64,000 nucleotides of DNA. Origin: an uncultured Thermoleophilia bacterium. Its GTDB lineage: Bacteria > Actinomycetota > Thermoleophilia > UBA2241. Below are positions 10,951 through 60,826 of the stretch, piece after piece; position 1 is the first letter of the stretch, and each line of letters begins with the position of its first letter. Location: the NCBI GenBank assembly GCA_963832655.1, contig CAWHUW010000005.1, forward strand, positions 65,014-129,013, read 5' to 3'. A program made the translations under genes and the position numbers. The notes under the pieces were generated by a model. It was not told the DNA's origin. It made no database searches and saw nothing but the letters and a program-made list of their open reading frames with translations.

Positions 10951-11631
10951 GCGACAGAGCAGTCCGGGCCATCCAAGGTCGAGCGCCGGGCAACGACTCC
11001 GGTGGCCGGCGCGATCGCCGGCATCCTCTTCGCCGTGCTGTTCGGCGATCAGCGTCGTCATCATTTCGACCGACGATGACCGACGTCGCCGACGAGTACG
11101 GGTGCCTGGCTGGAGGCGGGACGCCGACAGGTTCAAGTTCGCCCTCAGCCTGCTACCCTTCGCGGGGCTGTTCTTCCTCTGGTTCATCGCCGTGACTCGC
11201 GAGCGCCTGGGCCGGTTCGAGGACCAGTTCTTCGCGACCGTCTTCCTCGGCAGCGGTCTGCTGTTCCTCGCCCTGATGTTCGCCGCCGCCGCCTCGGCGG
11301 GAGCCATCGTCGCCACCTACGCCAGGGACCCGTCCGGCTTCGCCGACAGCACGCACCTACCTCTTACGCGCGGCAGACGGTCGCCCAGATCTTCGGCGTC
11401 TACGCGCTGCGCATGGCGGCCGTCTTCCTCATCTCGCAGGCCACGCTCTGGCTGCGCACCGGGGTGATGCCGCGGTGGATGGCTTTCCTCACCTTTCCCG
11501 TGGCGCTCGTCCTGCTCTTCATCGTGACCGAGGTCACCGTTGGATCATGCTCGTCTTCCCGGCGTGGGTGCTTCCTCGTCAGCGTGTACATCCTCGTCGT
11601 GAATCTCCGCAGGCGAGGAGAGGCGGCATGA
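10937..11631 (+). pseudogene. hypothetical multi-pass membrane protein; several frame breaks
   Basis: ATG 10937 follows GAAGGGGGA. Hydrophobic segments (AGAIAGILFAVLFG, FALSLLPFAGLFFLWFIAVTRERLGRFEDQFFATVFLGSGLLFLALMF, AAVFLISQATLWLRTGVMPRWMAFLTFPVALVLLF) are spread over three frames. Confidence 0.4.
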
Positions 11632-11732
11632 CCCGTCTGCATGGCTGACGCCCAGGCAGGCGGAGCTCGATCACCTGGTCGGATCCGGGTGCTGCGCGTG
11701 AGGCCGACCGGCGGCGCGTCAGCCGAGCCCGC

Positions 11733-12875
11733 TCAGACGAGGACCTTCGCGACGTAGGGCGACGCGTATGCCCTGATCGTCGCCGCGTAACTCAGTGAGA
11801 AGCTCAGCACGTCGCCGACCTTCGGCGCGACCGACGCGTCGGTCGCGTCCAGGACGGTGTGGTCGCTGCTGCCTCCGATCACGGCGATGCCCGGCTCCAC
11901 CGGCGTCAGTCCGAGCGGGTCCACGTCCTGCTGGCCCAGGGCGACGATCACGCGGAGCCCCCTGCCCGTCCGCGTCCTCCGCGGCTTGCTGAAGAGGACC
12001 TGCTCGGCCAACGGCCCGACAGGCTCGAAGTCCTTCCACTTGGCCTCGATCACCGTCGCGCTGACCTCGATCGCGTCCTGATGGAGCCCGTCGATCGGGG
12101 CGCGGCTGATCTCGTCCCGCCCGCCGAGGATCGACTCGCCGACGCGCAGGTCGTGGATGCCGGCGGGCAGGCCGCCGGCGAGGGCGAGGTTGAGGGCGCT
12201 CGAGTTGGCGCCGCTGACGACGAGCGGGTAGCCGAGCACGGCGGCGGCCTCGTCGCGCATCGCGATCAGGGCCGCCATCTTCTCGGGCGTCGGCAGCGCG
12301 CCGCCGAGGCAGACGAAGTTGGAGCCGAGGCCGTGCACGCGCACGCCCTCCATGCGGCTCACGGCGCGCACGACGTCGGGAAGCTCCTCGGGCAGGATGC
12401 CCTCGCGCACGTCGCCCATCTCGACCATGAGCAGCACGCCGTGCTCGCGCCCGCGGCGGCGTGCCGCCGCCGCCAGCGCGGCGATGGTCACGACCTCGGT
12501 GTTGAGCGACACGTCCGCGAGATCGACCGCATCGCCGGCCTGGTCGGGCGCCGGCGCGCGGATGAGCCAGAGCGGCACGCCGAGCTCCGCGCCGCGCAGC
12601 GTCTCGAGGTCCTCGAGACGCGAGTCGCCGAGCGCGCAGGCGCCCCCGGCAAGCATCGCCCGGGCGAGGTCCACGCTGCCGCAGAAGGCCTTCGTCACGC
12701 CCACCACGCCGACGGGGTCGAGCCGCGCGACGAGGCTCGCGGTGTTCTCGCGGATCTTCGCGAGGTCGATGGCCATCGAGACGGTGGACTTCACGACGCC
12801 TCTCTCGAGTCGATCTGGCTTGCCGGGCGGGTCAAAGAGGGGCGGCTCCCCCTCGCGGAGGAGCCGCCCCGTCAC
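11733..12875 (-). CDS. alanine/ornithine racemase-family PLP-dependent enzyme (YhfX/Orr-like)
   Basis: Intact 380-aa ORF. PLP-lysine context VVGVTKAFCG, a TIM-barrel N-terminal half and a beta C-terminal half. The true start may be ATG 12776 (MAIDLAKIRENT). Confidence 0.8.
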   Translation of the reverse strand: MTGRLLREGEPPLFDPPGKPDRLERGVVKSTVSMAIDLAKIRENTASLVARLDPVGVVGVTKAFCGSVDLARAMLAGGACALGDSRLEDLETLRGAELGVPLWLIRAPAPDQAGDAVDLADVSLNTEVVTIAALAAAARRRGREHGVLLMVEMGDVREGILPEELPDVVRAVSRMEGVRVHGLGSNFVCLGGALPTPEKMAALIAMRDEAAAVLGYPLVVSGANSSALNLALAGGLPAGIHDLRVGESILGGRDEISRAPIDGLHQDAIEVSATVIEAKWKDFEPVGPLAEQVLFSKPRRTRTGRGLRVIVALGQQDVDPLGLTPVEPGIAVIGGSSDHTVLDATDASVAPKVGDVLSFSLSYAATIRAYASPYVAKVLV

Positions 12876-12894
12876 ACTGCCGTCGGGACCTGGA

Positions 12895-14499
12895 TCAGGC
12901 CGGCGGGATCTGCTGGAAGATCTGGTTGGGGTCGATGCCCTCCTTGCGGTTCTGGCTGTACATGTAGGCGACGAGGATGAAGCCGATGGTGATCACCGCG
13001 GCCATGCCGATCTGCGCGTAGGCCGTGGCGAGCTCGAGGCCCACGTACAGGATCATGTACCAGCCGATGGCGTGCACGATCGCGCCGATGATCGCCATCG
13101 CCGGTACGCCGAACCACCGCGACTGGAAGGTGGTCTTCTCGAAGAGCTCCGGCCGCGTGAACGGCAGGAACAGGCCGGCGAGACCGACGGTCCAGATGAA
13201 GAACATGCCGGTGAAGTCGAGGATCGCGAGCATGACACCGGCGGCGGTGCCGCCGAGTGCGTCGCCCAGGCCGATGAAGCAGCCGATGATGCTGATGACG
13301 CCGATGAAGTGCGTCGCCGTAGTCGGCACACCCCGCTTGCTCACGCTGCACAGGCTGAGCGGAAGCTGGCGGTCGAACGACATCGCGAAGATGCCGCGCA
13401 CGCCGCCCATCCAGATGATGACCGACGTGTTCAGGAACCAGCACATGAAGCCGACGCCGAGGACGACCGCGAGCCAGGACGAGCCGCCGCAGATCGCCGC
13501 GTAGAACGGGATCGACGGGATCGGCGGCGTGACGCCTCCCATGGCCGTCTGCAGCGCCGCGAACGACTCCTCACTCGTGTTGTACAGGTAGCTGTAGTCG
13601 CGGACGAAGTCCGAGCCGAAGCTCACGCCGGGCAGCCACGCGTTGAGCATGTACATCACCGTGACGGCGAAGAACCCGATGCCCATGCCGCGCATGAAGC
13701 TCGTGCGAGGCGTCTTCACCTCACTGCCCACGAACGAGATCGACTCGAGCGCCGTGTAGGCCCAGAAGACGGCCATGAGCATGCCGCTGATGCCGTCCCA
13801 CGTGCTGAGGAGGGCATCCTGCACGCCCTGCGCATCGGCGGCGGCAATGATCGCGTCGTAGCTGCCGGCGCCGTACACCGAATCCCACTCCGCCACGCCG
13901 TCCTTGACGGCCATGAGGACGAGCGCCAACGCGGTCACGACCAGCGGCACGTACACGACGATGCGGATGAACCACTTGAGGCGGTCGATGCCCTGCAGCT
14001 CGAAGACCCAGATGATGAGCGTCGCCGCGAGGGCGAGGTAGAGCCGCGGGTAGTTGCCTGTCAGCCACTCCCCGGCGTCGGTCAGCGACTGGGAGCCGCC
14101 GATCTGCCCTGCCACCTGCAGGACCGAGGCCAGGATGTTGAACATGATGTAGTTCAGGAAGCCGACCGAGAAGCCCACGCTGACGATCCAGAGCCAGTTG
14201 GGCAGGAAGCCCAGCAGGGGATGCGTGGCGCGGGAGATGACGACGTACATCGCGCCGCTGCGCGGGAACGAGCTCGCGTAGACGGCGATGAGAAAGACGG
14301 GCAGGAACCACAAGAGGCCGCCGAGGAGGAACGCGAGGACCATGTTGCCGCCGGGGTAGAGACCCGGCTGCTTGACGGCGTAGTAGGTCATGCCCGAGGC
14401 GGCCGGTCCGGCGATGGTGATGAGCAGGACGTCGAACCAGCTCATCTCGCGGACAAGGCCTGACGCCTTTCGTGCAAAGACGACAGTCTCTTCTGCCAT
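12895..14499 (-). CDS. APC-superfamily amino-acid permease
   Basis: ATG 14499 (MAEETVVFARKASGLVREMSWFDVLL) follows AAAGGAGGCAGC. About 12 TM helices. The gene ends 19 nt before the racemase ORF. Confidence 0.85.
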   Translation of the reverse strand: MAEETVVFARKASGLVREMSWFDVLLITIAGPAASGMTYYAVKQPGLYPGGNMVLAFLLGGLLWFLPVFLIAVYASSFPRSGAMYVVISRATHPLLGFLPNWLWIVSVGFSVGFLNYIMFNILASVLQVAGQIGGSQSLTDAGEWLTGNYPRLYLALAATLIIWVFELQGIDRLKWFIRIVVYVPLVVTALALVLMAVKDGVAEWDSVYGAGSYDAIIAAADAQGVQDALLSTWDGISGMLMAVFWAYTALESISFVGSEVKTPRTSFMRGMGIGFFAVTVMYMLNAWLPGVSFGSDFVRDYSYLYNTSEESFAALQTAMGGVTPPIPSIPFYAAICGGSSWLAVVLGVGFMCWFLNTSVIIWMGGVRGIFAMSFDRQLPLSLCSVSKRGVPTTATHFIGVISIIGCFIGLGDALGGTAAGVMLAILDFTGMFFIWTVGLAGLFLPFTRPELFEKTTFQSRWFGVPAMAIIGAIVHAIGWYMILYVGLELATAYAQIGMAAVITIGFILVAYMYSQNRKEGIDPNQIFQQIPPA

Positions 14500-14820
14500 G
14501 CTGCCTCCTTTGATCCAGGTTCGTTTGACGTTGGGACGCGAGCCTCGACGTCCCTGGACTCCCACGACGGCAGCCGCGCGTGCGCGGCCTGGAGCTGTGA
14601 CCTCTGGCCGGCATCCCCCCTTTGACTGGATCTGGACCGTGCATCTGCGTCCGTGCACGTGTCAGTTGGGCTATGCATACAGCCAGGCGGGGGACGCGGT
14701 CAAGGACTTGCCCGGCGGCGCAGGTCCGGCCGGTCTTCGATACCATCTCACCACTGGCCACGACGAACGAGCGGCGCACGCCCGTCACGGCGGGCGCTGT
14801 CGCGATCGGGAGGGACGCGG

Positions 14821-15751
14821 ATGCGCATCGTGGTGCACGGGCAGCAGGCGTTCGGCAAGGCGGTGCTCGAGGCGCTGGTCGAGCGCGGCGAGGACGTGAT
14901 CGCCGTGTACGCCGCGCCAGACCAGCCGGGCGACAGGCCAGACCCGCTCAAGGCGGCGGCGCTCGCCGCCGGACTCCCCGTCATGCAGCCGGCTTCCTAC
15001 CGGGAGCCGGCGGTCCGGGACGAGTTCCGCAGCCCTCGCACCCGACCTGCAGGTCATGGCCTTCGTCACACTGGTCGTCCCCAAGGAGTTCCTCGACGTC
15101 CCGAGCGAGGGCACGATCCAGTACCACCCCTCGCTGCTGCCCCGGCACCGGGGGCGCAGTTCCATCAACTGGCCGATCATCCAGGGCGAGACCGAGACCG
15201 GGCTGTCGATCTTCTGGCCGGACGACGGGCTCGACACCGGCGACGTGCTGCTGCAGGAGACGACCCCGATCGGGCCCGATGACACACTCGGCTCGGTCTA
15301 CTTCGACAGGCTCTTCCCCATGGGCGTCGCGGCGCTGCTCGAGGCGGTCGACCTCGTCAAGGCCGGGAAGGCGCCTCGCATGAAGCAGGACGATGCTTTG
15401 GCGACCTACGAGGGCCCCTGCGAGCGCGACAACGCGCGCATCGACTGGGGCAAGCCGTGGCGCCAGATCCACGACCTTGTCCGCGGCTGCGACCCGGCGC
15501 CGGGGGCCTGGACCGCCTTCGGCGGCCAGGCCCTCCAGGTCTTCGGGACGCAGCCGCTCCCGGCGCGCGAGCTCAGCGGGCTCGGCGGCCGGCCGGGCGA
15601 GGTGGTCGCGGTCGACGAGGACTGCGTTGACGTCGCGTGCGCCGACGGCCGCGTCCGGATACAGCATGTGAGGCCGGCCGGCGGGGCGAAGATGCCGGCC
15701 GGCGAGTGGGCGGCGGCGAGCGGCGTCCGGATCGGCGCCGGGTTGCACTGA
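14821..15751 (+). CDS. formyltransferase (methionyl-tRNA formyltransferase-like, N- and C-terminal domains); one frameshift near 15030
   Basis: MRIVVHGQQAFGKAVLEAL..., then in another frame HPSLLPRHRGRSSINWPIIQGETETGLSIFW and the C-terminal RGCDPAPGAW domain. Confidence 0.8.
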
Positions 15752-15771
15752 CGACAGAGGGAGGCTGGGCG

Positions 15772-16495
15772 ATGACCACCGAGGTGAAGATCCTGGGCTG
15801 CGCGTGGAGCCCGCGGCACAGCAACACGGAGATCCAGGTGCAGGAGGCGCTGGCGGCTGCGGCCCAGATGCCTGGCGTGACCACCGAGTACTACAGCATC
15901 GCCGGCAAGAAGATGCTGCCCTGCCGCTCGACCTACAAGTGCCAGGACGATCCGGACCGCGACGTGCTGTGCCACTGCTACAAGCCGACGGCCGACGCCT
16001 TCCGCGAGGTCGCCGAGCTGGTCTTCGACGCCGACGGCATCATCTTCGGCTGCCCCGTGTACTGGATGTCGGTGACCTCGGAGCTGAAGGCCTTCATGGA
16101 CCGCTCGATGGCGGCCGAGATGCTGGGGCGACCGTGGCGCAACAAGGCGGCCGGCTTCCTGACCGTCGCCTGGGACCGCCAGGGCGGGCACGAGCACTGT
16201 ATCCAGACGATGGCCTCCTGGGCGCAGATGCACGACATGGTCGTCGTCGGGGTAGGGCCAGAGCGCCCCGACGAGAGCATCGGCGGCTACACCGGCGCCA
16301 TGGCGCTGTCGGGGTTCCCGCTCCCCGTAGGAGACGCCCGACGCCATCCTGCAGGACGAGATCGGCCTGCACGCGACGCGCTGCGTCGGCTGGCGCGTCG
16401 TGGAGATGGCGAAGGTCCTCAAGGCCGGCCTGGGCGCGCTGGACCAGGGTGAACTCAAGTGGCCGGCGTACGGACTTGAAGAGGGCGCGGCCTGA
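15772..16495 (+). CDS. iron-sulfur flavoprotein (Isf)-like / NADPH-dependent FMN reductase family; one frameshift near 16325
   Basis: ATG 15772 follows GAGGGAGG. Compact Cys cluster LPCRSTYKCQDDPDRDVLCHC. Flavodoxin-like IIFGCPVYWMSVTSELKAFMDR. The C-terminal DAILQDEIGLHATRCVGWRVVEMAKVL is in a shifted frame ending at TGA 16493-16495. Confidence 0.7.
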
Positions 16496-16640: not shown

Positions 16641-18240
16641 GTGACGGCGGACGCGGCAGACAAGCGCGACTGGACCCCGAGAGTGAGCTCGGCCATGCTC
16701 GCGCGCCTCACGGCGCGCGCGGCCGTGGCTGAGCCCTGCGACGCGGCTCCAGTGGAGGCGCCGTTCACCGGCGAGACGCTCGGCGAGGTGCGGCTCGGAC
16801 GCGCCGCCGACGTCGAGCCGCGCCGTCGCGACCGCTCGCGCGTCGCAGGCGGCCTGGGCCCGACGGCCCGTCGACGAGCGCAGCGCGATCCTCCTGCGCT
16901 TCCACGACCTTCTCATCGAGCGCGCTCACGAGGCCCTCGACGTCGTCCAGCTCGAGACGGGCAAGGCGCGCCGCGACGCGCTCGAGGAGGTCCTCGACGT
17001 CGCCATCCAGGTGCGGTACTACGCGCACACGGCGGCGGCGTACCTGCGCCCCCGCCGCCGCAAAGGCACCCTGCCGGTCGCGACCCGAGCCTGGGAGCTC
17101 CATCATCCGCGCGGCGTCGTCGGCATCATCACCCCGTGGAACTACCCGCTCACCCTGACCGCCGGCGACGCCATCCCGGCGCTGCTCGCCGGCAACGGCG
17201 TCGTCCTCAAGCCCGACGTGCAGACGCCGTTCAGCAGCCTTTGGGCTGCCGACCTTCTCGCCGAGGCGGGCCTGCCGGACGGCCTCCTCCAGGTCGTCAC
17301 CGGGCGCGGGGCGCCGCTCGGCGTGCCGATCATCGAGGCCGTCGACTACCTGCTGTTCACCGGCTCGACGGCCGCCGGCCGCATCGTGGCGACGGAGGCC
17401 GCCGAGCGGCTCACGCCCTGCGGGCTCGAGCTCGGCGGCAAGAACCCGCTGCTCGTGCTGGCGGACGCCGACCTCGGCAAGGCCGTGCGCGGCGCGGCGC
17501 GTGCCGTCAGCTCGAACACCGGCCAGTCCTGCATCAGTGTCGAGCGGCTGTACGTCCACGCCGACGTCTACGACGCCTTCGTGCCGGCCCTCGCCGAGGC
17601 GCTGCGTGAGGTCCGCCTCGGCGCTGAGCTCGACTTCGCCCCCGACATGGGCTCGCTCAAGAGCGCGAAGCAGCTCGCCGCTGTCTCAGCCCATGTCGAC
17701 GACGCCGTGGCGAAGGGGGCCGAGGTGCTGGCGGGCGGTCGCGCCCGCCCGGACCTCGGCCCGTACTTCTACGAACCGACCCTGCTCGCCGGCGTCACCG
17801 AGGAGATGGCGCTGTGCCGCGACGAGACCTTCGGTCCTGTCGCGGCCGTCTACCGCTGCGCCTCGGTCGACGAGATGGTCCAACGCGCCAACGACAGCGC
17901 CTTCGGCCTCAACGCCAGCATCTGGACACGCGACGTCGCCGCCGGCCGCGCGATCGCCGCTCGCCTCCAGGTCGGCGGCGTCAACATCAACGAGGGCTAC
18001 GCCGCGACATGGTCGTCGGCGAGCCCGATGGGCGGCGTCAAGGACTCCGGCTCCGGCCGCCGCCACGGCGCCCCGGGCATCCTGCAGTACACCCAGACGC
18101 AGACGGTGGCGGCGCAGCGGCTCATCCCGGTCGGCACGCCGCCGTTCCTGCGCCACGACCAGTACGCGCGAGCGATGCTGCTGGGGCTGCGGGCGCTGCG
18201 CCGCGTGCCCTGGTTCGACCGGCTCGGGCGGGGGAGCTGA
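16641..18240 (+). CDS. NAD(P)-dependent aldehyde dehydrogenase (succinate-semialdehyde dehydrogenase-like); one frameshift near 16815
   Basis: ITPWNYPL, ELGGKNPLLV, catalytic Cys in NTGQSCISVERLYV, EPTLLAGV and ETFGPV. The N-terminal 58 codons are in a different frame. Confidence 0.9.
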
Positions 18241-18297
18241 GCCAGGCCCGAGGCGAGGACGCCGCCTCTCCACGTCGAGGCGCGGCCTCGGTCCCCG

Positions 18298-19551
18298 CTA
18301 CTTGACGCTGAAGGAGACCCACCTCGACTGCGCCGCGGTGTGCCAGGCCGTCTCGGCGACCATGGTCCTGGCGCGGTACGTGCCGCGGCGGCCTGGCGTG
18401 TAGCGCCAGGAGCAGGAGGCGCCGAAGTCCGTCGTCTCGCGCTGTACCGCGCTGACCAGCCGCCATGAGCCCGCCGAGCGGCGCTGCACGACAAGCGTCA
18501 CCTTGCTGCCATCTAGTGGAGGCCAGAGCCCCCCGGTCGCCCGAACAGAGCGACCAAGCGCGAAAGTCGTCCGGCTCACCTTCAGCGTGACGCTCGCCGT
18601 GATCGGGACGAGGACGGTGAAGCTGGTGACGCTCGTGCCGGCGCCGTCTGGGCCGGTCACGGTGACCGGCCCGCTCGCGGCGCCGGTCGGGACCGCGGCC
18701 GTGATCTCCGCGTCCGAGATGACGGCGAACGACGCCGCGACGCCGCCGAAGGTGACCGAGGTGGCGCCGGCGAAGCCGGCGCCGGTCACGCTCACGACCG
18801 TCCCGGGGAAGCCCCTGAGGGGCAGGAAGGCCGCGACACTCGGCGCCGGGGTGACGGGCTCCCACCGGACGACGAAGTCCGTGGCGCTCGTCGCCGCTCC
18901 GCCGACCGTGGTGACCGCGATCGGGCCTGTCGTCGCACCCGCCGGCACCCATACCGTGATCTCCGCCGCTGAGTCCGCGGTGAACCGCGACGCCGCGACA
19001 CCGCGGAACGTGACGGACAGGACGCGGACGAAGCCGGCGCCGTTCACCGTCACCGTGGCGCCCGGCGCGCCGGAGGCCGGAGAGAAGCCCGCCACGGACA
19101 CGGCCGGCGGCACGAAGGTGTGATGCGGACTGCCGCCGGCGTGCGTGGCGGACGGGCTCACGGGATGGCACGACGTGCAGGTCGCCGGCCTGTCGGAGTG
19201 CGCAGCGTGCGTGACTGTCGTCCCATCGGCCAGGTGGCAGGTTGCGATGCATGCGCCGTCGCTGCGCGCCCCGCTCATGTCCTGTCCCGGCGTGTGGCAG
19301 GTCCAGCACGTGAGCGACGCGTCGGCGACGTCGTAGTCGCCGTGACAGGTGAGGCACTTCGAGTTCGTCGGCGGCCAGTTGGTGTGGTCGTCCTGGTGGC
19401 ACCATCCGCATGCGTCGGCATCGCCCACGATGTCGCCGTGCACGTACGAGTCGTACGCGCCGGCGGGGGGCGCAGCGACGCCGCCGGCGCCGACGAGGAG
19501 CAGAACGGCCACGGCCGCGACGCCCAGCAGTCTGAGCCGGGACAGCCTCAT
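18298..19551 (-). CDS. secreted multihaem cytochrome c (4 CxxCH + 1 Cx3CH) fused to two IPT/TIG domains and a C-terminal beta-sandwich domain
   Basis: ATG 19549-19551 overlaps the livF stop (ATGA). Signal peptide MRLSRLRLLGVAAVAVLLLVGAGG. Haem motifs CGWCH, CLTCH, CWTCH, CIATCH and CTSCH. Two tandem repeats of the type GFSPASGAPGATVTVNGAGF...VTFRGVAA / GFPGTVVSVTGAGF...VTFGGVAA. Confidence 0.75.
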   Translation of the reverse strand: MRLSRLRLLGVAAVAVLLLVGAGGVAAPPAGAYDSYVHGDIVGDADACGWCHQDDHTNWPPTNSKCLTCHGDYDVADASLTCWTCHTPGQDMSGARSDGACIATCHLADGTTVTHAAHSDRPATCTSCHPVSPSATHAGGSPHHTFVPPAVSVAGFSPASGAPGATVTVNGAGFVRVLSVTFRGVAASRFTADSAAEITVWVPAGATTGPIAVTTVGGAATSATDFVVRWEPVTPAPSVAAFLPLRGFPGTVVSVTGAGFAGATSVTFGGVAASFAVISDAEITAAVPTGAASGPVTVTGPDGAGTSVTSFTVLVPITASVTLKVSRTTFALGRSVRATGGLWPPLDGSKVTLVVQRRSAGSWRLVSAVQRETTDFGASCSWRYTPGRRGTYRARTMVAETAWHTAAQSRWVSFSVK

Positions 19552-20301
19552 TCCCCGCCCAGGTACGCGGCCCGCACGTGCGGGTCCGTGAGCAGGGCGG
19601 CGGCTTCGTCCGAGAGCGTCACCCTGCCGGTCTCGAGGACGTAGCCGCGGTCCGAGACCTCGAGCGCCGCGTTGGCGTTCTGCTCCACGAGGAGGATGGT
19701 CGTCCCCTGGGCGTTGATCTCGCGGATGATGTCGAAGATCCTCTCGACGAGCATGGGGGCGAGCCCCATGGACGGCTCGTCCAGCATGAGCAGCTTGGGG
19801 CCGGCCATGAGCGCTCGCCCCATCGCGAGCATCTGTTGCTCGCCGCCCGAAAGGGTGCCGCCGGGCTGCGACTCGCGCTCCTTGAGCACCGGGAAGAGGT
19901 CGAACACGCGGGTGAAGTCGGCGGAGAGGTCTTGGCGCGTGCGCGCGAAGGCGCCCATCTCGAGGTTCTCCTTGACCGTCATGCGCGGGAAGATCTTGCG
20001 CCCCTCGGGCGCCTGCGACAGGCCCAGGGTGACGATCTCGTACGCCGGCACGCCCGTGATGTCCTTGCCGGCGTACGCGATCCGCCCCGAGCGCGGGCGC
20101 TGCAGGCCCGAGATGGCGGCGAGCGTCGTGCTCTTGCCGGCGCCGTTGGCGCCGATCAGCGTGACGACCTCGCCGGCGCGGATCTGCAGAGAGACGCCCT
20201 TGAGCGCCTCGATGTTGCCGTAGAAGACGTGGATGTCCTCGACGTCGAGGAGGACCTCGCCGGCCGCGCGCCTGCGGCGGCGCCGCGTCCTGCGCCAGCA
20301 T
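19548..20301 (-). CDS. livF: branched-chain amino acid ABC transporter ATP-binding protein LivF; one frameshift near 20255
   Basis: ATG 20301 follows GGAGGAGG. TLIGANGAGKST, LSGGEQQMLAMGRAL and LLMLDEPSMGLAP. Length 754 nt is not a multiple of 3. Confidence 0.85.
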
Positions 20302-20315
20302 GACCTCCTCCGCCG

Positions 20316-21107
20316 TCACGCGCTCTTCCCCAGGTACGCCTCGATGACCCGCGGGTCGCGACGCACTTCGTCCGGCGACCCTTCGGCGATCTTCTCGCCG
20401 TGGTCGAGCACCACGATGCGGTCGGAGATGCCCATGACCACCTTCATGTCGTGCTCGATGAGAATGATCGTCATGCCCTCGTCGCGGATGCGCCGGATCA
20501 GTCCCATGAGGGCGGCGGTCTCCTGCGGGTTCATGCCCGCCGCCGGCTCGTCGAGGAAGAGCAGCGTCGGTTCGGTGGCCAGGGCGCGGGCGATCTCGAG
20601 CCGCCGCTGCGAGCCGTAGGGCAGGTTCTTGGCGAGCTCGCCGGCGTGCCCGCCGAGGCCCACGTACTCGAGCAGCTCGAGCGACTTGTCGTGCGCGTCC
20701 TGCTCTTCACGCTTGGCGCGCGGCGTGCGCAGCACGACGCTCAGCACGCCGCTGCTCGTGCGGCAGTGCCGCGCCACCATCACGTTCTCGAGCGCCGTCA
20801 TCTCGTTGAAGAGGCGGATGCTCTGGAAGGTGCGCGCGACACCGAGCTTCGTCACCTTCGACGGCAGCATCCCGGCGATGTCGTGACCGAGAAAGCGGAT
20901 CGCCCCGGAGGTCGGCGGATACACGCCGGTGATGGCGTTGAACAGCGTCGTCTTGCCGGCGCCGTTGGGCCCGATCAGCCCGACGATCTCGTTCTCGTCG
21001 GCGTGGAAGTCGACTTTGTTCACGGCGAGCAGACCGCCGAAGGCCTTGACGGCCTGGACGGTCTCGACGATGCGGCGCCGCTCGGCGGTCGCGTCAGCCA
21101 CGGGCAT
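20316..21107 (-). CDS. livG: branched-chain amino acid ABC transporter ATP-binding protein LivG
   Basis: MPVADATAERRRIVETVQAVKAFGG, GLIGPNGAGKTT, LPYGSQRRLEIARAL and LLFLDEPAAGMNP. Confidence 0.9.
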   Translation of the reverse strand: MPVADATAERRRIVETVQAVKAFGGLLAVNKVDFHADENEIVGLIGPNGAGKTTLFNAITGVYPPTSGAIRFLGHDIAGMLPSKVTKLGVARTFQSIRLFNEMTALENVMVARHCRTSSGVLSVVLRTPRAKREEQDAHDKSLELLEYVGLGGHAGELAKNLPYGSQRRLEIARALATEPTLLFLDEPAAGMNPQETAALMGLIRRIRDEGMTIILIEHDMKVVMGISDRIVVLDHGEKIAEGSPDEVRRDPRVIEAYLGKSA

Positions 21108-22239
21108 CGGACCACTCCTCACGCTCGTGCTCGCCCTCGCTCCGGCTTCCCGGCCGCATCTCGAGCGCCACGCGCACAGAGCCCAGGAGCCCTTGCGGGC
21201 GGAAGACCATGAGCAACACCAGCACGAGCCCCATGGCGATGCCGCGCGTCTCGGGGTGCGTCTGCACGAAAGAGAAGTCGCGCAGCCACTCCTGCAGCGA
21301 GACCCAGATGATGGCACCCAGTACCGGGCCCCAGATGTTGCCCATGCCGCCGAGCACGACCAGGCTCAGGATGAGGAACGACTCCATGAGCATGAAGCTG
21401 CTCGGCGAGATGAAGTTGATGTAGTGGCCGAAGAAGACGCCCATGACGCCGGCGAAGAAGGCGCCCGACGCGTACGAGAGCAGCTTGTAGCGCGAGGTGT
21501 GGATGCCCATCGCCTCGGCGGCGACCTCGTCCTCGCGGATCGCGGTCCAGGCCCGCCCGATGCGCGAGCGCACGATGCGCGAGATCGCCCATAACGAGAC
21601 GACGGCGATCGCCAGCGCCACGAAGTAGAGGCTGATCTGCTCCTGGAACTTGAAGCCGAAGAGCTCCGGTTTGGGGATGCCGGGAATGCCGGAGGGGCCA
21701 CGCGTGAGGCCGACCCAGTTGCTCGCCACGATGCGGATGATCTCACCGAAGGCCAGGGTCATGATCGCCAGGTAGTCTCCGCGCACGCGCAGCGTCGGGT
21801 AGCCGATGAGCACGCCGGCCAACGACGCCAACAGGCCGCCGACCAGCAGGTTGACCCACATCAGCCACCAGTAGTCGTCGACGTCGACCCCGTACTTCGT
21901 CTTCAGGACCTGGTAGAAGATGATCGCCGTGTAGTAGGCGCCGATCGCGTAGAAGGCCACGTAGCCGAGGTCGAGAAGACCCGTGAAGCCGACGACGATA
22001 TTGAGGCCGGAGGCGAGCACGACGTAGACCACGACCACCGTGAGCAGGGTGATCCAGCGGTTGGAGCCGAGCAGGAACGGCAGGACGACGGCGACGGCGA
22101 GCAGCACGCCGAGCACGATCGTCTGCGTGCGCGACGAGCCGTCGCCGACGAACGCGGACGCGATGGGGTTCAGCTTCGTCTTCCAGCGGCCGTCGCCGCC
22201 CTGACCGCCTCCCGCCTTCTGAGGCGCCGGGGTCGCCAT
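21094..22239 (-). CDS. livM: branched-chain amino acid ABC transporter permease LivM
   Basis: ATG 22239 lies 1 nt after the livH stop. GLNIVVGFTGLLDLGYVAFYAIGAY and REDEVAAEAMGI. Confidence 0.9.
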   Translation of the reverse strand: MATPAPQKAGGGQGGDGRWKTKLNPIASAFVGDGSSRTQTIVLGVLLAVAVVLPFLLGSNRWITLLTVVVVYVVLASGLNIVVGFTGLLDLGYVAFYAIGAYYTAIIFYQVLKTKYGVDVDDYWWLMWVNLLVGGLLASLAGVLIGYPTLRVRGDYLAIMTLAFGEIIRIVASNWVGLTRGPSGIPGIPKPELFGFKFQEQISLYFVALAIAVVSLWAISRIVRSRIGRAWTAIREDEVAAEAMGIHTSRYKLLSYASGAFFAGVMGVFFGHYINFISPSSFMLMESFLILSLVVLGGMGNIWGPVLGAIIWVSLQEWLRDFSFVQTHPETRGIAMGLVLVLLMVFRPQGLLGSVRVALEMRPGSRSEGEHEREEWSDARG

Positions 22240-22240
22240 C

Positions 22241-23179
22241 TCAGGCCTTCTGCGAGATCGTCGAGCCGAGCAGGCCTGACGGCCTGAACGACAGGATGAG
22301 GATGAGGATGACGAAGGCGAACGCGTCGCGGTACTGCGAACCCATCGGCAGATAGGCCGAGCCGAGCGCCTCGATGACGCCGAGCAGCAGGCCGCCGAGG
22401 AAGGCGCCGGGGATGTTGCCGATGCCGCCGAGCACGGCGGCGATGAACGCCTTGAGGCCGGGGACGAACCCCATCGTCGGCCACGCGGCGTGGTAGACGC
22501 CGCCGTACAGGCCACCGGCCAGGGCGCCCAGCGCCGAGCCGATGAGGAAGGTCAGGGCGATGACCTTGTTCACGTTCACGCCCATGAGCGCGGCGGTGCG
22601 CTTGTCCTGGGCCGAGGCGCGCATCGCGCGCCCCATGCGTGTCCGTCCCACATACAGGTTCAGGAGAAGCATGACGACGACCGTCACGACGACGACGAAG
22701 ACCTGCAGGTAGGTGATCTGCACTCCGCCGACCTCGAACGCCTTCTGCGCGCCCTCAGCGTCGGTGAACAGCGGGATGTCCGGGAAGGCGACCTGCTGCG
22801 AACCGAAGATCGCCTGAGCGACGTTCTGCAGGAGGATCGAGACGCCGATCGCCGAGATGAGCGCCGCCAGGCGAGGAGCGTTGCGCAACGGGCGGTACGC
22901 GAGACGCTCGATGATCACGCCCATGAGGCCGACCGCGGCCATGGCGATCATGATGGCGAGAAAGAAGTTGAGCTCCGGCATGGCGATGGTGCTGCCGAAG
23001 ATCGTCATCTCCGGGACCATCATCATGATGGTGATGAAGGCGCCGAACATGAAGAGCTCGCCGAAGGCGAAGTTGATGAGCTCGATGATGCCGTAGACCA
23101 TCGTGTAGGCCACGGCGATGAGCGCGTAGAGGCAGCCGATCATGAGGCCGTTGACGAGTTGCTGGGCCAGTTCGCTCAT
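22241..23179 (-). CDS. livH: branched-chain amino acid ABC transporter permease LivH
   Basis: MSELAQQLVNGLMIGCLYALIAVAYTMVYGIIELINFAFGE; RAMRASAQDKRTAALMGVN. Confidence 0.9.
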   Translation of the reverse strand: MSELAQQLVNGLMIGCLYALIAVAYTMVYGIIELINFAFGELFMFGAFITIMMMVPEMTIFGSTIAMPELNFFLAIMIAMAAVGLMGVIIERLAYRPLRNAPRLAALISAIGVSILLQNVAQAIFGSQQVAFPDIPLFTDAEGAQKAFEVGGVQITYLQVFVVVVTVVVMLLLNLYVGRTRMGRAMRASAQDKRTAALMGVNVNKVIALTFLIGSALGALAGGLYGGVYHAAWPTMGFVPGLKAFIAAVLGGIGNIPGAFLGGLLLGVIEALGSAYLPMGSQYRDAFAFVILILILSFRPSGLLGSTISQKA

Positions 23180-23273
23180 GCGGTCCTTCGCTTGCCTCGC
23201 GTCGCTCGGGTGGTCGGTCGGGGAGGGGCGACGCCTGCTACGCCGCGCGCCCCTCCCCGCGTGATGCTCTAGC

Positions 23274-24446
23274 TTATTCGGCCGCCGGCTGCACCGGCGC
23301 GGTGGCCAGCGCGCCGTCCTGCACGATGACGATGCTAAGTGGCTTGATGACGTCGCCGTTCTCGTCGAAGGTGATCGGGCCGGAGATGCCCTCGTAGGTG
23401 CCGATCTCGGCAAGCGCGTCGTTGATTGCCGTGCGGTCGTTCGAGCCGGCCTTCTCGGCCGCGGCCGCGGCGAGCATGGTCACGTCGTACGCGTTGGCCG
23501 CGAACCAGTCGGGGTTGGCGCCCTCGAACTTGGCCTTGTACGCCTCGACGAACGCCTGCACCGCCGGATCGTCCTTGGTGTAGTCGAAGAAGGTCGAGAC
23601 GAGCATGCCCTCGACCGCCGCCTTGCCGAGCTTGGGCAGCTCGTCGGAGGCGTACCCGTCGGAGCCGAGAAGCTGGACGTCCATGCCGAGCTCGCTGGCC
23701 TGCTGGGCGATCTTCGAGCCCTCCGGGTAGTAGCCCGAGAGGAAGATCAGCTCGGGGCCGGCGCCCTTGACCTTGGTGAGCTGGGCTTTGAAGTCGGTGT
23801 CGCCGGCGGCGTACTGCTCCTTGGCGACGACCGAGCCGCCGGCCGCCTTGATGCCGGCGTCGTAGGCATCGGCGAGGCCGCGCCCATAGTCGGAGTTGTC
23901 GTAGATGATGGCCACGTTCTTCATGCCGAGATCGTTCACGCTGTAGTTGGCGAGACCCGCGCCCTGGACGGCGTCGGTCATGCAGATGCGCCAGACGAAA
24001 GCGCCCAGGGAGGTGATGTCCGGCTGGGTGGCCGACGGCGTGATCATGGGCAGGCCGGCGGCCTCGTACTTGGCGCCGGCCGCGATGGTCGCGCCGGAGA
24101 ACATGTGGCCGTTCACAAGGACGAGTTCGCTGTCGTCGATGAACTTCTGGGCCACGAGCACGGCCTCTTTCGGGTCGCCCAGGTCGTCGCCCAGTTCCAT
24201 GGACGCGTCGGCGCCGTTGACGCCGCCGTCGGCGTTGAGCTCTTCGATGGCGATCTCGACGCCGGCCTTGTGCGAGGCGCCGTAGGTGGCGTACTGGCCG
24301 GTCATGGGGCCGGCGACGCCGATCTTGAACGGCGCGGCGGCTTCGTCGCCGCCGTCGTCGCCGCCGCAACCGGCCACGACAAACACGGCCACGGCCGCGA
24401 GGACGAGAACGGAGAACAGGATGAGTTTCGCGCGCGTGTCCTTCAA
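23274..24446 (-). CDS. branched-chain amino acid ABC transporter substrate-binding lipoprotein (LivK/LivJ family)
   Basis: TTG start follows AAGGGAGG. Lipobox LAAVAVFVVAGCGG. Type-1 periplasmic binding fold (IGVAGPMTGQYATYG...). Confidence 0.9.
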   Translation of the reverse strand: MKDTRAKLILFSVLVLAAVAVFVVAGCGGDDGGDEAAAPFKIGVAGPMTGQYATYGASHKAGVEIAIEELNADGGVNGADASMELGDDLGDPKEAVLVAQKFIDDSELVLVNGHMFSGATIAAGAKYEAAGLPMITPSATQPDITSLGAFVWRICMTDAVQGAGLANYSVNDLGMKNVAIIYDNSDYGRGLADAYDAGIKAAGGSVVAKEQYAAGDTDFKAQLTKVKGAGPELIFLSGYYPEGSKIAQQASELGMDVQLLGSDGYASDELPKLGKAAVEGMLVSTFFDYTKDDPAVQAFVEAYKAKFEGANPDWFAANAYDVTMLAAAAAEKAGSNDRTAINDALAEIGTYEGISGPITFDENGDVIKPLSIVIVQDGALATAPVQPAAE

Positions 24447-24536
24447 GTTGCCTCCCTTTGGGGACTGCAGTGACGACGCGGGACCACGCCGCCGGAACGG
24501 TAGGCTCCGGAGGCCGGTCCCGCTCGATTGCCGGGG

Positions 24537-24566
24537 AGTCTAGAGGCGCACTGAGGGCTCCGTCAA
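24537..24566 (-). promoter_or_regulatory. candidate sigma-70-type promoter of the liv operon (-35 TTGACG, 18-nt spacer, -10 TAGACT)
   Basis: The minus strand reads TTGACG-GAGCCCTCAGTGCGCCTC-TAGACT about 90 nt upstream of the livK TTG start. Pattern match only. Confidence 0.35.
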
Positions 24567-24754
24567 ATCCCGCGCCTCGTGGAGAGCCGCCCCGCCACGA
24601 TCTGAGGCACGCGGGCGCCGGACGGATACAATCGGGAGCACGGACGGGACTGACCGTGGATGACCTCCTGCGGCCCGGCGCGTCAGAACGGCGCCGGCCG
24701 CGTCCTGGCCTCAGCCCAGGTCCTCGCCCGATGCCCGAAGAGAAGGAGCCCGCG

Positions 24755-25967
24755 ATGCCCGACGAGCCGCAGAACCCCGTCACCGCCCCCGCCCGCGACC
24801 TCTCGCCCGCGACGCTCGCCGTCTGGGCGGGCGAGGGTGAGTCGCTTGTCCAGGGCGCGACCCAGGTCGCCGATCGTGTACAGCGCCGCCTACGGCTACC
24901 CCGACGTCGACGAGTGGCTCGACGTCGCCTTGGGCCGCAAGCCGGGTCACATCTACAGCCGCAACACGAACCCGACCGTGTGCGCCTTCGAGGAGAAGCT
25001 CCGGATCCTCGAAGGGGCCGACGCGGCGACGAGCTTCGCCACGGGCATGGCGGCGGTCAGCAACACGCTCTTCGCCCTGCTCTCACCCGGCGACCGCGTC
25101 GTCTCGGTCAAGGACACTTACGGCGGCACCAACGTCGTCTTCACCGACTTCCTTCCGCGCTTCGGCATCGAGGTGGAGCTCTGTGACACGACCGACCACG
25201 AGCAGATCGAGGCCACAGTCGCGGGCGGCTGCACGTTGCTCTACCTCGAGACGCCGACGAACCCGACGCTCAAGGTGGTCGACATCGCCCGCCTCGCCGC
25301 CGCCGGGCGCGCCGCGGGAGCGACAGTGGTCGTGGACAACACGTTCGCGACGCCGCTCAACCAGAGCCCGCTCCAGCTCGGAGCCGGCCTCGTCCTGCAC
25401 AGCGCCACCAAGTACCTCGGCGGGCACGCCGACGTGCTCGGCGGCGCGATCTGCGGGTCGTCGGAGCTCGTCAAGAAGGTCTACCACTACCGCGAGATCA
25501 CCGGCGCCACGCTCGATCCCATGGCGGCCTACCTGCTCATCCGCAGCATGAAGACGCTGGCGCTGCGGGTCGGCCGGCAGAACGAGAGCGCCCTGCGCAT
25601 CGCGCAGTGGCTCGAGGCGCAGCCGGCCGTCGTCGTCGTCAACTACCCCGGACTCGCCTCCCACCCGGGACACGAGATCGCGGCGCGGCAGATGCGCGGC
25701 TTCGGCGGCATGCTCAGCTTCGGCCTCGAAGGAGGCTTCGAGGCCGTCAAGCGCGTCCTGCCGCGCCTCAAGCTCGCCCACCGCGCCGCCAACCTCGGCG
25801 CCGTCGAGACCGTCGCCGGGCCGCCGGCGACGACGAGCCACGTCGAGTGCACGCCCGAGGAGCGCGCGGCGATGGGCATCCCGGAAGGGCTGATCCGCTA
25901 CTCCGTCGGCATCGAGGACGCCGGCGACCTCATCGCCGACCTCGAGCAGGCGCTGACGGCCGCTTAG
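24755..25967 (+). CDS. Cys/Met-metabolism PLP-dependent enzyme (cystathionine gamma-synthase/lyase family); one frameshift near 24865
   Basis: ATG 24755 follows GAAGGAG. SRNTNPT, DNTFATP and PLP-lysine HSATKYLGGHAD. The N-terminal 37 codons are in a different frame. Confidence 0.85.
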
Positions 25968-58262: not shown

Positions 58263-60826
58263 ATGGGGAAGAAGACAATCCTGTTCATGATCGTGGCACT
58301 CGCGGCCTTTGCCGTCGTGCCGGCGACCGCATCCGCGGACCTCGTCAACGAGTACGGGATGCACTTCGTCGGCAAGACCAAGTGCGTCGAATGCCACAGC
58401 GCGGCGGCGGACGCCACCGTGCACGGGCGCATGGCGCGCACCGGGATCAACCCGACGCCGCCCGCCGAGTGGACCATGTTCAGGTCCGCCGGCGACGCCC
58501 CCCAGGTGCCCGGCACCGCGCCCGCCGTCTGGGCGGCCGGCGGCGAGTACCCCTACGACATGCCCTGGATCACCCTGGGCGACGACACGTCGGGCCTCGC
58601 CACGGAGTACCTCTTCTGGAGGGGCAGCACCGATCCGACCGTCATGCCCTGGAACCTCGTCGAGGGCCTCGTCTACGAGCATGACGAGTGGATGGTCGGC
58701 GAGAGCCCGAGCGGCCTGTACGACGTGACGTACGCGTGCCAGCGCTGTCACCAGCTCGGCAGCACCAACAAGGCCACCAAGGGCGAGATCGTGCCGAACC
58801 CGGAGGCGACCATCGCGCCGACGGCGACAACCGCCGTCCAGTGGGCCCGTGACGCGAGCAAGTCGGTCGCCGACTTCATGAGCGACCCGACCGTGTCTCA
58901 GGCCGGCATGAGCATCCAGTGCGAGTCGTGCCACGGCACCGGTGCCCCGCGTCCGCCGGCCACCACGGCGCCCGCCGACAAGCACTGGAACTCGGGCACG
59001 CAGCTCTCGAACCGCATGCCCGACACCACCTGGCGTCAGCTCGCGACCTCGCAGGTCTGCGGCCAGTGCCACGGTAGCTACACCGCCGTGACCGGCACGG
59101 ACGGCAAGACCACGCTCGGCGTCTACGGCTACACGCCGAACCTGCCGTTCCGCACGTTCGGCGACATCAACGGCCTGTCGGGCGGCGCGTCGTACACCTA
59201 CATCCCGACCGAGGCCGAGTTCATGGCTGCCCCGACGAAGTTCTTCATGTTCCCCAACGGGAGCAACGCCAAGGGCAACCACTACTACTACAACGAGTGG
59301 TCGGCCTCTGCGCACTCGTATCGCGGTGCCTACTACACGGCTACGCCGCCAACGACGAACCCCGACGCCATGACCTACCAGGCCGCCGGCAACGGGCACT
59401 TCAACGCCACCGCGCAGTCGTCCATCGACAGCAAATGCTACAGGTGCCACACCGGCGAGGGCTATCTCGAGAGCAAGGGCGTCATCGACAAGTACCTCGC
59501 CTACAACGAGACGTTCACAGCCACCAAGGACAACACCGGCTTCCTCGGCCAGGAGTGCTCGACCTGCCACGGCGGGCATCCGGCCTCTCTGGACGAGGCC
59601 GACGTGGTGCGTGCGCCCGACAAGGCGGGTCAGCGCAGCGCAACCGGCCTCACCGTGGACAACCAGAGCATCTGCGAGGACTGTCACAACTGGCAGTACG
59701 AGGTGCAGGGCACGAGCCGGTCTACAAGCCGATCGACACGCTCGCTTCGCGCGGCGGCCCGAGTCATCCGCAGCGTGAAACGCTCCGCGGCAAGGTCATG
59801 CTGGACGTCCCCGTCGCCGGCGACTTCATGCCCGGCGTCAAGTGCGAGGACTGCCACATGCCCAAGACCAACAAGGGCGCCAACCGCTACTCGCACGGCA
59901 TGGGCATCATGGAGCCGGGCGACGCCCAGACGTGGATGACGGCAGCCGGCGCAAGCTACATGGGCGAGGACTCGTGCTCGACCTGCCACCCGGCGCAGAC
60001 GCGCATGGAGCTGCAGGACAGCCTCGAGGGCTGGCAGGGTGACGCGACGGCGGCGGCCGACGCAGCCGGAGTCGCGATCACCGCGGCCAAGACCCGCAGC
60101 GAGTTCTCCATGACCGACGCGAGCAACCCCGGTTACATCCTGGTCGGGCGTGCCACGTGGAACTACAAGTCGTGGCAGAGCGATCTCTCGGGCGGCGTCC
60201 ACAACCCCGAGTACGTCGTCGAGGGACTCGAGAAGGCCACGCAGCTGGCGAAGTCGGTCGGCGGTTCGTTCGCCGCCGTCCAGGCGCCGGCTTCCGTCCT
60301 TCCGGGTGGCAACGCGATCGTGTCGGGCAAGCTCGTCAACGGCGACGGCTCTCCGGCCGCCGACGCGACCGTCCAGATCAGCAGCGGCGGGAGCGTCATG
60401 ACGTCCGCGAACGGCGGCTTCGCCTTCCTCGTCAACCCGACCGTGGCCACGACCTACAGCGTGACCTGGGTCCGTTCGGGCGATACTCGCACGAACCTCA
60501 CCAGCCCGAGCGTGACGGTCGCCATGGCCAAGTACGCGTCGACGACGACGATCGCCAGGTCGGCGTCGTCAGTGACCGTCGGCAAGGCGGTGAAGATCTC
60601 CGGCAAGGTCACGTCATCGGTGGCCGTGACCGGCAAGGTCAAGATCTACTTCCGCAAGGGAACGAGCGGGAGCTGGAAGTACTACTCGGTCACCCTGAGC
60701 TCGGGCAGCTACAGCAAGTCGATCACGCTCAGCTCCAAGGGCACCTGGTACTTCAAGTCCGAGTACCTCGGGACCAGCACCATCGCGACGTCCAAGGCAG
60801 CCGAGATCAGCGTGAACGCCAAGTAG
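58263..60826 (+). CDS. secreted nine-haem cytochrome c with C-terminal Ig-like/beta-sandwich domains; one frameshift near 59712
   Basis: ATG follows GGAGGGAGC. Signal peptide MGKKTILFMIVALAAFAVVPATASA. Haem motifs CVECH, CQRCH, CESCH, CGQCH, CYRCH, CSTCH, CEDCH, CEDCHMPK and CSTCH. The C-terminal ~230 aa are Ser/Thr/Val-rich beta repeats. Confidence 0.85.

Follow-up and report, generated by a model that had tools for sequence, protein, structure and literature searches.

A predicted secreted cytochrome with five haem motifs and an Ig-like stalk, encoded behind a liv operon in an uncultured Thermoleophilia bacterium

We describe here a gene of an uncultured Thermoleophilia bacterium, located in a stretch of 64,000 nucleotides of DNA (contig CAWHUW010000005.1, positions 65,014 to 129,013; hereafter the 64-kb window), where it stands behind livK-H-M-G-F, the genes of a branched-chain amino-acid ABC transporter (Liv). 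Our results support the notion that its product, P0001, is secreted and that it joins a multihaem c-type cytochrome to two IPT/TIG domains and a third immunoglobulin (Ig)-like domain. Judged from sequence comparison, it is a real, well-conserved and narrowly distributed pentahaem cytochrome with a novel Ig-domain architecture and, by analogy with Thermincola, the Thermoleophilia most probably employ it within an extracytoplasmic electron-transfer system of the OcwA type. We consider it rather probable that the protein acts as an extracytoplasmic electron relay partnered with an OcwA-like protein and merely hitch-hikes on liv transcription.

The gene comprises 417 codons for a product of 417 residues (ATG 19551-19549, TAG 18300-18298, reverse strand); the features of interest are collected in Table 1. 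The GC content at third codon positions (GC3) is 0.91 in the cytochrome frame, compared with about 0.64 in the two alternative frames, and this frame thus bears the coding signature of a 70% GC genome. A longer open reading frame (ORF) of 673 residues (18298-20319) was also considered as a LivF'-cytochrome fusion and was rejected: over 19548-20051 the coding signature (GC3 0.96) is that of the livF frame, and the long ORF is a high-GC artefact, since the cytochrome frame happens to remain open across livF. P0001 begins with a Sec-type signal peptide, MRLSRLRLLGVAAVAVLLLVGAGGVAAPPAGA/YDS; read from the sequence, its n-region is positive, its core is hydrophobic and its cleavage motif is AGA. 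Spelled out, the N-terminus is MRLSRLR-LLGVAAVAVLLLVGAGGVAA-PPAGA/YDS, and the N-termini of homologues have the same shape in the alignment.

The predicted haem-binding region follows directly, with the C codons of CGWCH, CLTCH, CWTCH, CIATCH and CTSCH at 19410, 19356, 19308, 19251 and 19179. All ten haem cysteines and the five motif histidines are invariant among 20 homologues, as are five further histidines (H38, H115, H118, H143 and H144), and H56 is nearly so. Since five distal histidines are available for five haems, bis-His, low-spin electron-transfer haems are predicted, and this for all five. The module would accommodate its five haems in 118 residues, about 22 residues per haem. It is also the most constrained part of the protein: the ratio of nonsynonymous to synonymous substitution rates (dN/dS) is 0.12-0.20 in the haem domain, similar to adjacent housekeeping genes (0.09-0.15), and 0.25-0.85 in the Ig domains, which evolve faster than the haem domain. 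A profile of the module searched against all PDB sequences gave weak matches to the Shewanella small tetrahaem cytochrome (STC) and to Hmc (6hr0, 2k3v, 1m1p; 1h29, 1gws; E 0.004-0.04) and weakly to NrfH (E 0.008), with MtrC much lower in the list; no chain named OmcZ, OmcS, OmcE or NrfB was among the matches at E up to 10. The STC, c3, c7 and Hmc modules are thus its best, though weak, matches, and their haem density is similar; in c3, one haem motif with a longer cysteine spacing also occurs. Unlike them, the module would carry five haems and continues into Ig domains, and it stays below the cut-offs of the corresponding Pfam models. Its sequence would therefore place it among compact multihaem domains of the general c3/STC kind, yet in a separate family.

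The remainder of the protein, from about residue 150 to 417, is modelled by AlphaFold as three beta-sandwiches with a predicted local distance difference test score (pLDDT) above 90. Two stretches of P0001 match the Pfam TIG family (PF01833) with 53.9 bits against a cut-off of 20.9, and the two copies are 57% identical to each other (E 2e-19), which indicates a tandem duplication. Since the AlphaFold haem domain is uninformative without haems, Foldseek returned generic Ig-domain proteins alone, namely plexin IPT3-6 (E 1e-10), Bacteroides SGBP-B and macroglobulin domains. The third sandwich, which we call the foot, has no solved relative by sequence search; the Big_3_5 profile (PF16640) matches 7 of 16 family foot copies (best E 4e-5), and the window copy gave no match at all at E up to 1. 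The foot is only 59% identical between strains in which the haem domain is 95% identical (the window and the lineage of locus L004, described below), and in comparisons with L004 and L026 its synonymous divergence is threefold above that of the rest of the gene (18301-18600). This pattern suggests recombinational allele exchange or diversifying selection on an exposed domain. The scaffold of TIG repeats and foot also bears other N-terminal heads: P0068 and P0083 carry a proprotein-convertase P-domain, and in P0053, P0068 and P0083 the cytochrome is replaced by a P-domain on the TIG-plus-foot scaffold or by TIG repeats alone. In these bacteria, the scaffold looks like a general display module.

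A preliminary description of this DNA, made from its letters, had thus read the product well: the signal peptide is present, the four CxxCH motifs and one Cx3CH (CIATCH) are found and conserved, the two tandem IPT/TIG domains are confirmed by Pfam and the C-terminal beta-sandwich is modelled with high confidence. The Gram-positive-like, high-GC genome that it had supposed is a high-GC actinobacterial one, with homologues nearly all in Thermoleophilia metagenome-assembled genomes (MAGs).

Table 1. Positions of the cytochrome gene, its domains, the liv genes and the OcwA-like gene in the window
Feature	Position	Strand	Evidence
Pentahaem-TIG-TIG-Ig gene, product P0001	18298..19551	-	Full-length alignment to 416-422-residue homologues; GC3
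Sec-type signal peptide, residues 1-32, predicted cleavage after AGA	19456..19551	-	Read from sequence
Pentahaem module, residues 33-150	19102..19455	-	Motif scan, alignment, dN/dS
IPT/TIG domain 1, residues 151-236	18844..19101	-	Pfam PF01833, AlphaFold, Foldseek
IPT/TIG domain 2, residues 237-317	18601..18843	-	TIG1/TIG2 comparison, alignment; missing from 335-residue relatives
C-terminal Ig-like domain (Big_3_5-like), residues 318-417	18301..18600	-	AlphaFold, profile searches
livF, ABC ATPase, apparent +1 frameshift near 20266	19548..20319	-	Pfam, frame analysis
livG, ABC ATPase with BCA_ABC_TP_C tail	20316..21107	-	Pfam
livM, permease	21094..22239	-	Domain content
livH, permease	22241..23179	-	Domain content
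livK, Peripla_BP_6 lipoprotein-type binding protein, TTG start behind GGGAGG	23274..24446	-	Domain content
Sigma-70-like match TTGACG-18-TAGACT, upstream of livK	24537..24566	-	Promoter scan
Nonahaem OcwA-like cytochrome, CarboxypepD_reg-like and extra Big_3-like C-terminal domain	58263..60826	+	Motifs, profiles, orthologues

A search of 5.8 billion proteins returned full-length relatives that carry two TIG domains in 407-424 residues and, in greater number, proteins of about 335 residues with one. With the haem-module profile, 284 of 1.84 billion representative proteins were found at E up to 1e-3, a number that falls to 10 when the limit is set to 1e-30; they include forms of about 255 residues without any TIG domain and forms of about 590 residues with more haems, both with the same C-terminal domain. 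The constant parts of the family thus appear to be the haem head and the Ig foot, between which the TIG spacer varies from zero to two copies. In GTDB, with one genome per species, 17 loci were confirmed; 14 are labelled as Thermoleophilia and one as Actinomycetes, the remaining two being assigned to an 'uncultured bacterium' and to a 'Deltaproteobacteria' MAG. As far as these searches go, the family has few members, nearly all of them in uncultured Thermoleophilia. Near-identical DNA occurs in soil, wetland and freshwater-sediment metagenome runs. Multihaem cytochromes have been noted before in Thermoleophilia MAGs by a survey (bioRxiv 10.1101/2022.03.26.485925) and in iron-reducing Coriobacteriia isolates (PMC9686372). 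Our literature search found no paper combining 'multiheme' and 'TIG domain' and no description of a TIG-fused cytochrome.

An indication of function comes from the one-TIG relatives. In L009, L010, L011, L013, L015, L017, L019 and L020, the one-TIG gene lies 60-220 bp downstream of a co-directional gene for a protein of 746-872 residues with nine CxxCH motifs, an arrangement present in at least eight Thermoleophilia loci. This nonahaem protein matches the Pfam models for MtrC/MtrF domain II/IV, cytochrome c7 and cytochrome c552 (Cytochrom_C552), and the only significant solved relative of the orthologue in L017 (7467-9707) is 6I5B (E 3e-18). That structure is OcwA, the nonahaem cell-surface terminal reductase from Gram-positive Thermincola potens, which reduces electrodes and iron oxides and, slowly, also nitrite and hydroxylamine (PMC6703420). 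The window carries such a gene as well: its product is 52-56% identical to the orthologues and, like them, has nine CxxCH motifs. Moreover, it has an extra last domain that the orthologues at the other loci lack, and this domain matches the profile of the pentahaem foot (hhalign probability 83%, E 9e-6); by BLASTP the match between foot and tail is marginal (E 0.058), so the support comes from the profile comparison alone. The OcwA-like reading frame breaks near 59710, an apparent frameshift, and from 59710 to 59819 a wetland contig is one letter longer than the window (109 against 108), which is no more than suggestive. In the route proposed for Thermincola, a membrane decahaem would hand electrons to a periplasmic decahaem, from which they would go to a wall-embedded hexahaem cytochrome and finally to OcwA (PMC7911101). 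By analogy, the pentahaem-Ig protein would be the best candidate for the relay serving the OcwA-like protein. The extracellular electron transfer proposed in the preliminary description is thus supported in part, inasmuch as one-TIG relatives stand directly behind an OcwA homologue and the window contains one too.

Several genes around these loci deserve mention. In L017 and L019-L021, the OcwA-like/one-TIG pair is followed by an amino-acid permease and another gene, and cytochrome genes and amino-acid transport genes recur as neighbours in varying orientation. About 2 kb downstream of the OcwA-like gene of the window lies a rubrerythrin gene (62840-63304, forward strand); such a gene is also reported to cluster with MtrA-like and OcwA-like genes in Anaerosoma tenue, an actinobacterium (PMC9686372).

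A number of observations weigh against an OcwA-associated relay or limit how far it can be taken. The pentahaem and OcwA-like genes of the window are 39 kb apart, and genes of the two-TIG subfamily are never adjacent to an OcwA-like gene at the loci examined, so that the partnership is extrapolated from the one-TIG subfamily. Nitrite and hydroxylamine are further substrates of OcwA, so that the pair may have a role other than the reduction of minerals. No LPXTG motif, lipobox or transmembrane anchor is recognisable in P0001, which could therefore be merely soluble. The haem module reaches no Pfam cytochrome family threshold (Cytochrome_C7, 16.9 against 24.8 bits; Cytochrom_c3_2, 17.5 against 25), and the NCBIfam model decahem_GSU2203 is also below its cut-off (12.7 against 325 bits); some remote family members do exceed the thresholds of curated cytochrome models. 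AlphaFold, run without haems, gives the haem domain a pLDDT below 50 and does not model its geometry, as expected of a prediction that omits haems. Within the 64-kb window we found neither cytochrome c maturation genes, including the W-rich CcsA/ResC motif, nor a quinol-oxidising cytochrome. As to the liv linkage, no RNA sequencing run containing the cytochrome gene was found, and in each of the two subfamilies, though in opposite orientations, a pentahaem gene is found next to the 3' end of the liv operon, which could hint at a link to Liv after all.

The position of the gene behind the liv operon is nevertheless well defined. Domain content confirms the order livK-H-M-G-F, and the junctions overlap (by 4-14 nt) or nearly so, except for a gap of 94 nt between livK and livH. 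The cytochrome ATG (19551) shares the letters ATGA with the TGA of livF at 19550-19548, as the preliminary description had stated, and the gene is physically the sixth cistron, on the same strand. The sigma-70-like site upstream of livK is the only one across 17900-24800, and a scan of this interval revealed no promoter-like site between livK and the cytochrome gene and no terminator-like site between the liv genes and the cytochrome gene; co-transcription from livK to the cytochrome would therefore be the parsimonious assumption. After the gene, a terminator was not found, as the 57-nt gap to a convergent aldehyde dehydrogenase gene folds no better than shuffled sequence (z = -0.47). Rfam contains no RNA family that matches anywhere in the window, thus no riboswitch or leader upstream of livK. 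The only purine-rich stretch before the cytochrome gene is GGCGGGG, which ends one base ahead of the ATG; a Shine-Dalgarno sequence at that distance is too close for normal function.

In the window, livF has no ATG, GTG or TTG in its own frame ahead of codon 90, and the GTG at 20319, which overlaps the livG stop, lies in the +1 frame relative to livF; removal of one base at 20266 yields a LivF of 256 residues from this GTG. Precisely this extra base is missing from a short-read contig of 206 nt (2012 soil metagenome), which otherwise differs from the window by three mismatches, and the frameshift is therefore probably due to an indel error in the consensus. L007, the closest of the long assemblies, has the same extra base but is itself full of broken genes, and L026, a short-read contig from a more distant relative, has an intact LivF of 239 residues. 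Taken together, the frame breaks of the window are read here as probable consensus indel errors of a long-read assembly and not as pseudogenes.

The same junction recurs in other assemblies. It is identical in L001, an independent Logan assembly; a 2012 soil contig covers 19303-19635 unbroken with the same livF-cytochrome junction; and the contig of P0002, whose protein is 89% identical, has the same 4-nt overlap with the upstream gene. L007 (76%) and L026 (68%) also have livF followed by the cytochrome gene and then by the convergent aldehyde dehydrogenase gene, and in L026 a 61-nt spacer with its own GGAGG Shine-Dalgarno sequence takes the place of the overlap. The linkage is nevertheless confined to one clade (P0001, P0002, P0004 and P0008, with the liv genes deleted in P0003). 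Five other two-TIG genes (P0007, P0009, P0013, P0014 and P0018) stand alone among unrelated neighbours, and one of these, P0007, is sister in the neighbour-joining tree to the single clade that unites the liv-linked genes.

The deletion variant P0003, 81% identical to P0001, is the most informative member of this clade, inside which its lineage nests in the neighbour-joining tree. It is represented by three contigs from three sources (L004, L005 and L006), in which the cytochrome gene lies between the Cys/Met pyridoxal phosphate (PLP)-enzyme gene and the aldehyde dehydrogenase gene of the window and the liv operon is gone. These flanks are clearly orthologous in sequence: between the window and the deletion lineage, the DNA of the PLP-enzyme gene is 91-92% identical, its protein is 96% identical over 360 tblastn-aligned residues and 88% in a global alignment of 403, and the aldehyde dehydrogenase protein is 98% identical. 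Promoter and leader of livK survive in the 464-bp spacer together with some 20 initial codons of that gene (matching 24549-24387 of the window), joined to roughly the last 16 codons of livF (matching the window from 19598 onward), so that about 4.8 kb were deleted, with break points near codon 20 of livK and some 16 codons ahead of the livF stop. In L004, the conserved promoter-like site is about 100 bp upstream of the cytochrome gene. In this comparison the haem domain, 95% identical, has a dN/dS of 0.12 and the aldehyde dehydrogenase one of 0.09, and we infer from the former value that the cytochrome remained under selection after the loss of the transporter. From the sequences, the cytochrome would thus use the liv promoter yet not need Liv. 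The start codon left over from livK, a TTG preceded by GGGGAGG, shares the reading frame of the cytochrome ATG (L004, 3160-3640; likewise in L005 and L006), and a product 33 residues longer at its N-terminus is therefore possible in this lineage. The 20-codon livK'-'livF remnant ORF of L004-L006 ends in TGATG at the cytochrome start.

In the one-TIG loci L010-L016, the pentahaem gene, paired with the OcwA-like gene, is convergent with an orthologous livKHMGF operon, and in L020 two genes lie between them (positions of about 10000-16000 in these loci); the Liv proteins of these loci and of the window clade are 80-89% identical. The two-TIG and one-TIG subfamilies are distinct in the tree, and an inverted ancestral duplication is a possible origin of the two liv-adjacent arrangements. 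A single inversion was also considered and rejected: it does not reproduce both neighbours, and the amino-acid permease of the window is just 24% identical to the one beside the one-TIG genes. When synteny is followed through the relatives, as the preliminary description had advised, the linkage thus holds in one narrow clade and is not a trait of the family, being deleted, absent or convergent elsewhere. That description had found no obvious rationale for it; given the narrow clade, the spacer of L026 and the sister lineage without liv genes, none is needed. As far as these comparisons can tell, the liv linkage is genuine but incidental, and the position looks like a recent accident of gene order.

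A true functional coupling to the Liv importer, such as a disposal of electrons from amino-acid oxidation that is co-regulated with uptake, or a redox control of the transporter, has to be weighed against this. The overlap of start and stop codons and the retention of livF followed by the cytochrome in at least four assemblies (68-100% identity) would fit such a coupling, as would the neighbourhood, which includes a peptide binding protein, an X-Pro dipeptidyl-peptidase, the Cys/Met PLP enzyme, an amino-acid permease and the aldehyde dehydrogenase, and the one-TIG genes, which likewise abut the same liv operon or an amino-acid permease. However, the lineage without livK-F retains a constrained cytochrome, the convergent liv operon of the one-TIG loci is not co-transcribed with it, the five solitary two-TIG genes have unrelated neighbours, and L026 has no overlap at all. 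We therefore judge a coupling decidedly improbable. It is hardly credible that the gene is not a working one, whether because its ORF arose by chance, because it is a pseudogene or because the assembly is chimeric where it meets livF. Frameshifts are indeed apparent in several genes of the window (livF, the one for the OcwA-like protein and one for a formyltransferase), and long spurious ORFs arise from high GC; against this stand the full-length alignment to many homologues with invariant haem motifs, the GC3 signature of the coding frame and the evidence of purifying selection. An artefactual junction, which the preliminary description had named as a ground for refutation, is excluded by its recurrence in independent short-read contigs.

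Two further explanations accept the cytochrome as such and assign it a different role. It might be an NrfB-like pentahaem donor to an enzyme of the NrfA/OcwA family, which would reduce soluble nitrogen or sulphur compounds in the wall zone and not minerals. With five haems, predicted here to be bis-His ligated, it resembles NrfB, and in the relatives it is encoded directly downstream of a large cytochrome of the NrfA superfamily, an order that mirrors nrfA-nrfB in E. coli. The Cytochrom_C552 match of the large protein points in the same direction, and OcwA reduces nitrite and hydroxylamine in vitro (PMC6703420). Its kcat for nitrite is, however, very low, 1 per min (PMC6703420), and the partner is OcwA-like and not a CxxCK nitrite reductase; the Ig stalk and foot are without counterpart in NrfB, which the PDB search did not return, and there are no nrf accessory genes in the window. 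Such a role seems to us unlikely, if still credible. Less probable in our view is a pro-protein like OmcZ of Geobacter sulfurreducens, in which the Ig domains would keep the protein monomeric until a protease cuts and the freed pentahaem domains polymerise into a conductive filament. The domain order is indeed that of the OmcZ preprotein (signal peptide, N-terminal multihaem region and tandem C-terminal Ig sandwiches), whose Ig domains are cleaved off by OzpA (PMC9473688), and a Pro/Ala-rich linker, HHTFVPPAVSV, lies between the haem domain and the first TIG domain. Nevertheless, there are five haems here compared with eight in OmcZ, with no detectable homology to OmcZ, OmcS or OmcE in the PDB profile search, and no subtilisin-like or peptidase S8 gene, and thus no adjacent OzpA-type protease, was seen beside the loci with gene tables (the flanks of L009-L025 being partly annotated) or near the cytochrome of the window. 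The five invariant distal histidines match five haems and leave no obvious spare ligand for coordination between subunits. Moreover, the Ig domains are of IPT/TIG and Big_3-like type and conserved as though functional in the mature protein, and the C-terminal domain is kept in every variant, TIG-less forms included.

If P0001 is instead a relay for an OcwA-like protein, it would be exported by Sec and lose its signal peptide, so that the mature cytochrome would be located outside the membrane. The N-terminal 118 residues would bind five haems covalently and, as all five are predicted to be bis-His ligated, would form a short electron wire and not a catalyst. This head would be held on a non-conducting stalk, made of two IPT/TIG domains and the conserved Ig-like foot, and the foot would probably dock the protein to the wall or to a partner; since zero, one or two TIG domains occur across the family, the stalk may be a spacer that sets the position of the relay outside the membrane. 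The head would pass electrons to or from the OcwA-like reductase, as the most likely partner, and the two together would send respiratory electrons to acceptors outside the cell, for example Fe(III), Mn(IV), humic substances or other cells. Transcription would most likely start at the livK promoter and translation would proceed by termination-reinitiation at the ATGA, so that in the window lineage the cytochrome would be made whenever the liv operon is transcribed, a promoter hitch-hike without functional partnership with the transporter.

The closest known parallel is the ImdcA-PdcA-CwcA-OcwA pathway of Thermincola (PMC6703420, PMC7911101). Both systems have a secreted cytochrome of high haem density in a Gram-positive phylum; the pentahaem gene is paired in relatives with a true OcwA homologue, as measured by its match to 6I5B, and bis-His ligation is predicted for all its haems, as modelled for CwcA. 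There are five haems here, in contrast to six in CwcA and ten in PdcA, without detectable sequence relationship to either, and the one to three Ig-like stalk domains are lacking in those proteins. The host is a mesophilic soil or wetland Thermoleophilia bacterium and not a thermophilic member of the Firmicutes, and within the window no membrane quinol oxidase was found. In domain set and order, the five genes upstream are those of a canonical LIV-I operon, livKHMGF; unlike in any described LIV system, an unrelated sixth cistron is appended to them, and the operon can be lost without it.

Elsewhere in the window, the formyltransferase-like gene (14818-15748, forward strand) aligns to its orthologue in L020 in two pieces in different frames, with an apparent frameshift near 15030. 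The aldehyde dehydrogenase ORF convergent with the cytochrome gene (17011-18240, forward strand) begins at position 100 of the Pfam profile, and its N-terminal part must therefore sit upstream in another frame. The region 30670-34719 encodes a DHODB-type subunit with iron-sulphur and flavin adenine dinucleotide domains and a Fer4_20/Pyr_redox_2 protein, a pair like NfnAB or sulphide dehydrogenase, and on the opposite strand a protein with an Fe-only hydrogenase large-subunit domain. These redox genes may hint at an anaerobic or fermentative lifestyle.

It is tempting to go further and to propose that uncultured Thermoleophilia of soils and wetlands have an envelope conduit of their own, in which a minimal pentahaem relay, kept at a defined distance by a modular stalk of zero to two TIG domains and a rapidly evolving Ig foot, feeds an OcwA-type reductase that can bear this foot too, the relay being wired in the window lineage to the promoter of amino-acid uptake. 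We put this forward tentatively, as a rather doubtful extension; if true, the cell would turn on extracellular electron disposal whenever it turns on the catabolism of amino acids. The junction with liv, and the natural variant in which the liv genes are deleted, also illustrate how a gene gains a foreign promoter by rearrangement and keeps it after the operon is lost, and they call for caution, as shared start and stop codons alone are no proof of common function. Although soils and sediments commonly contain Thermoleophilia, hardly any have been cultured, and little is known of how they respire. If our reading of P0001 is true, the pentahaem-Ig/OcwA-like system would be a second architecture beside the very few known in Gram-positive phyla.

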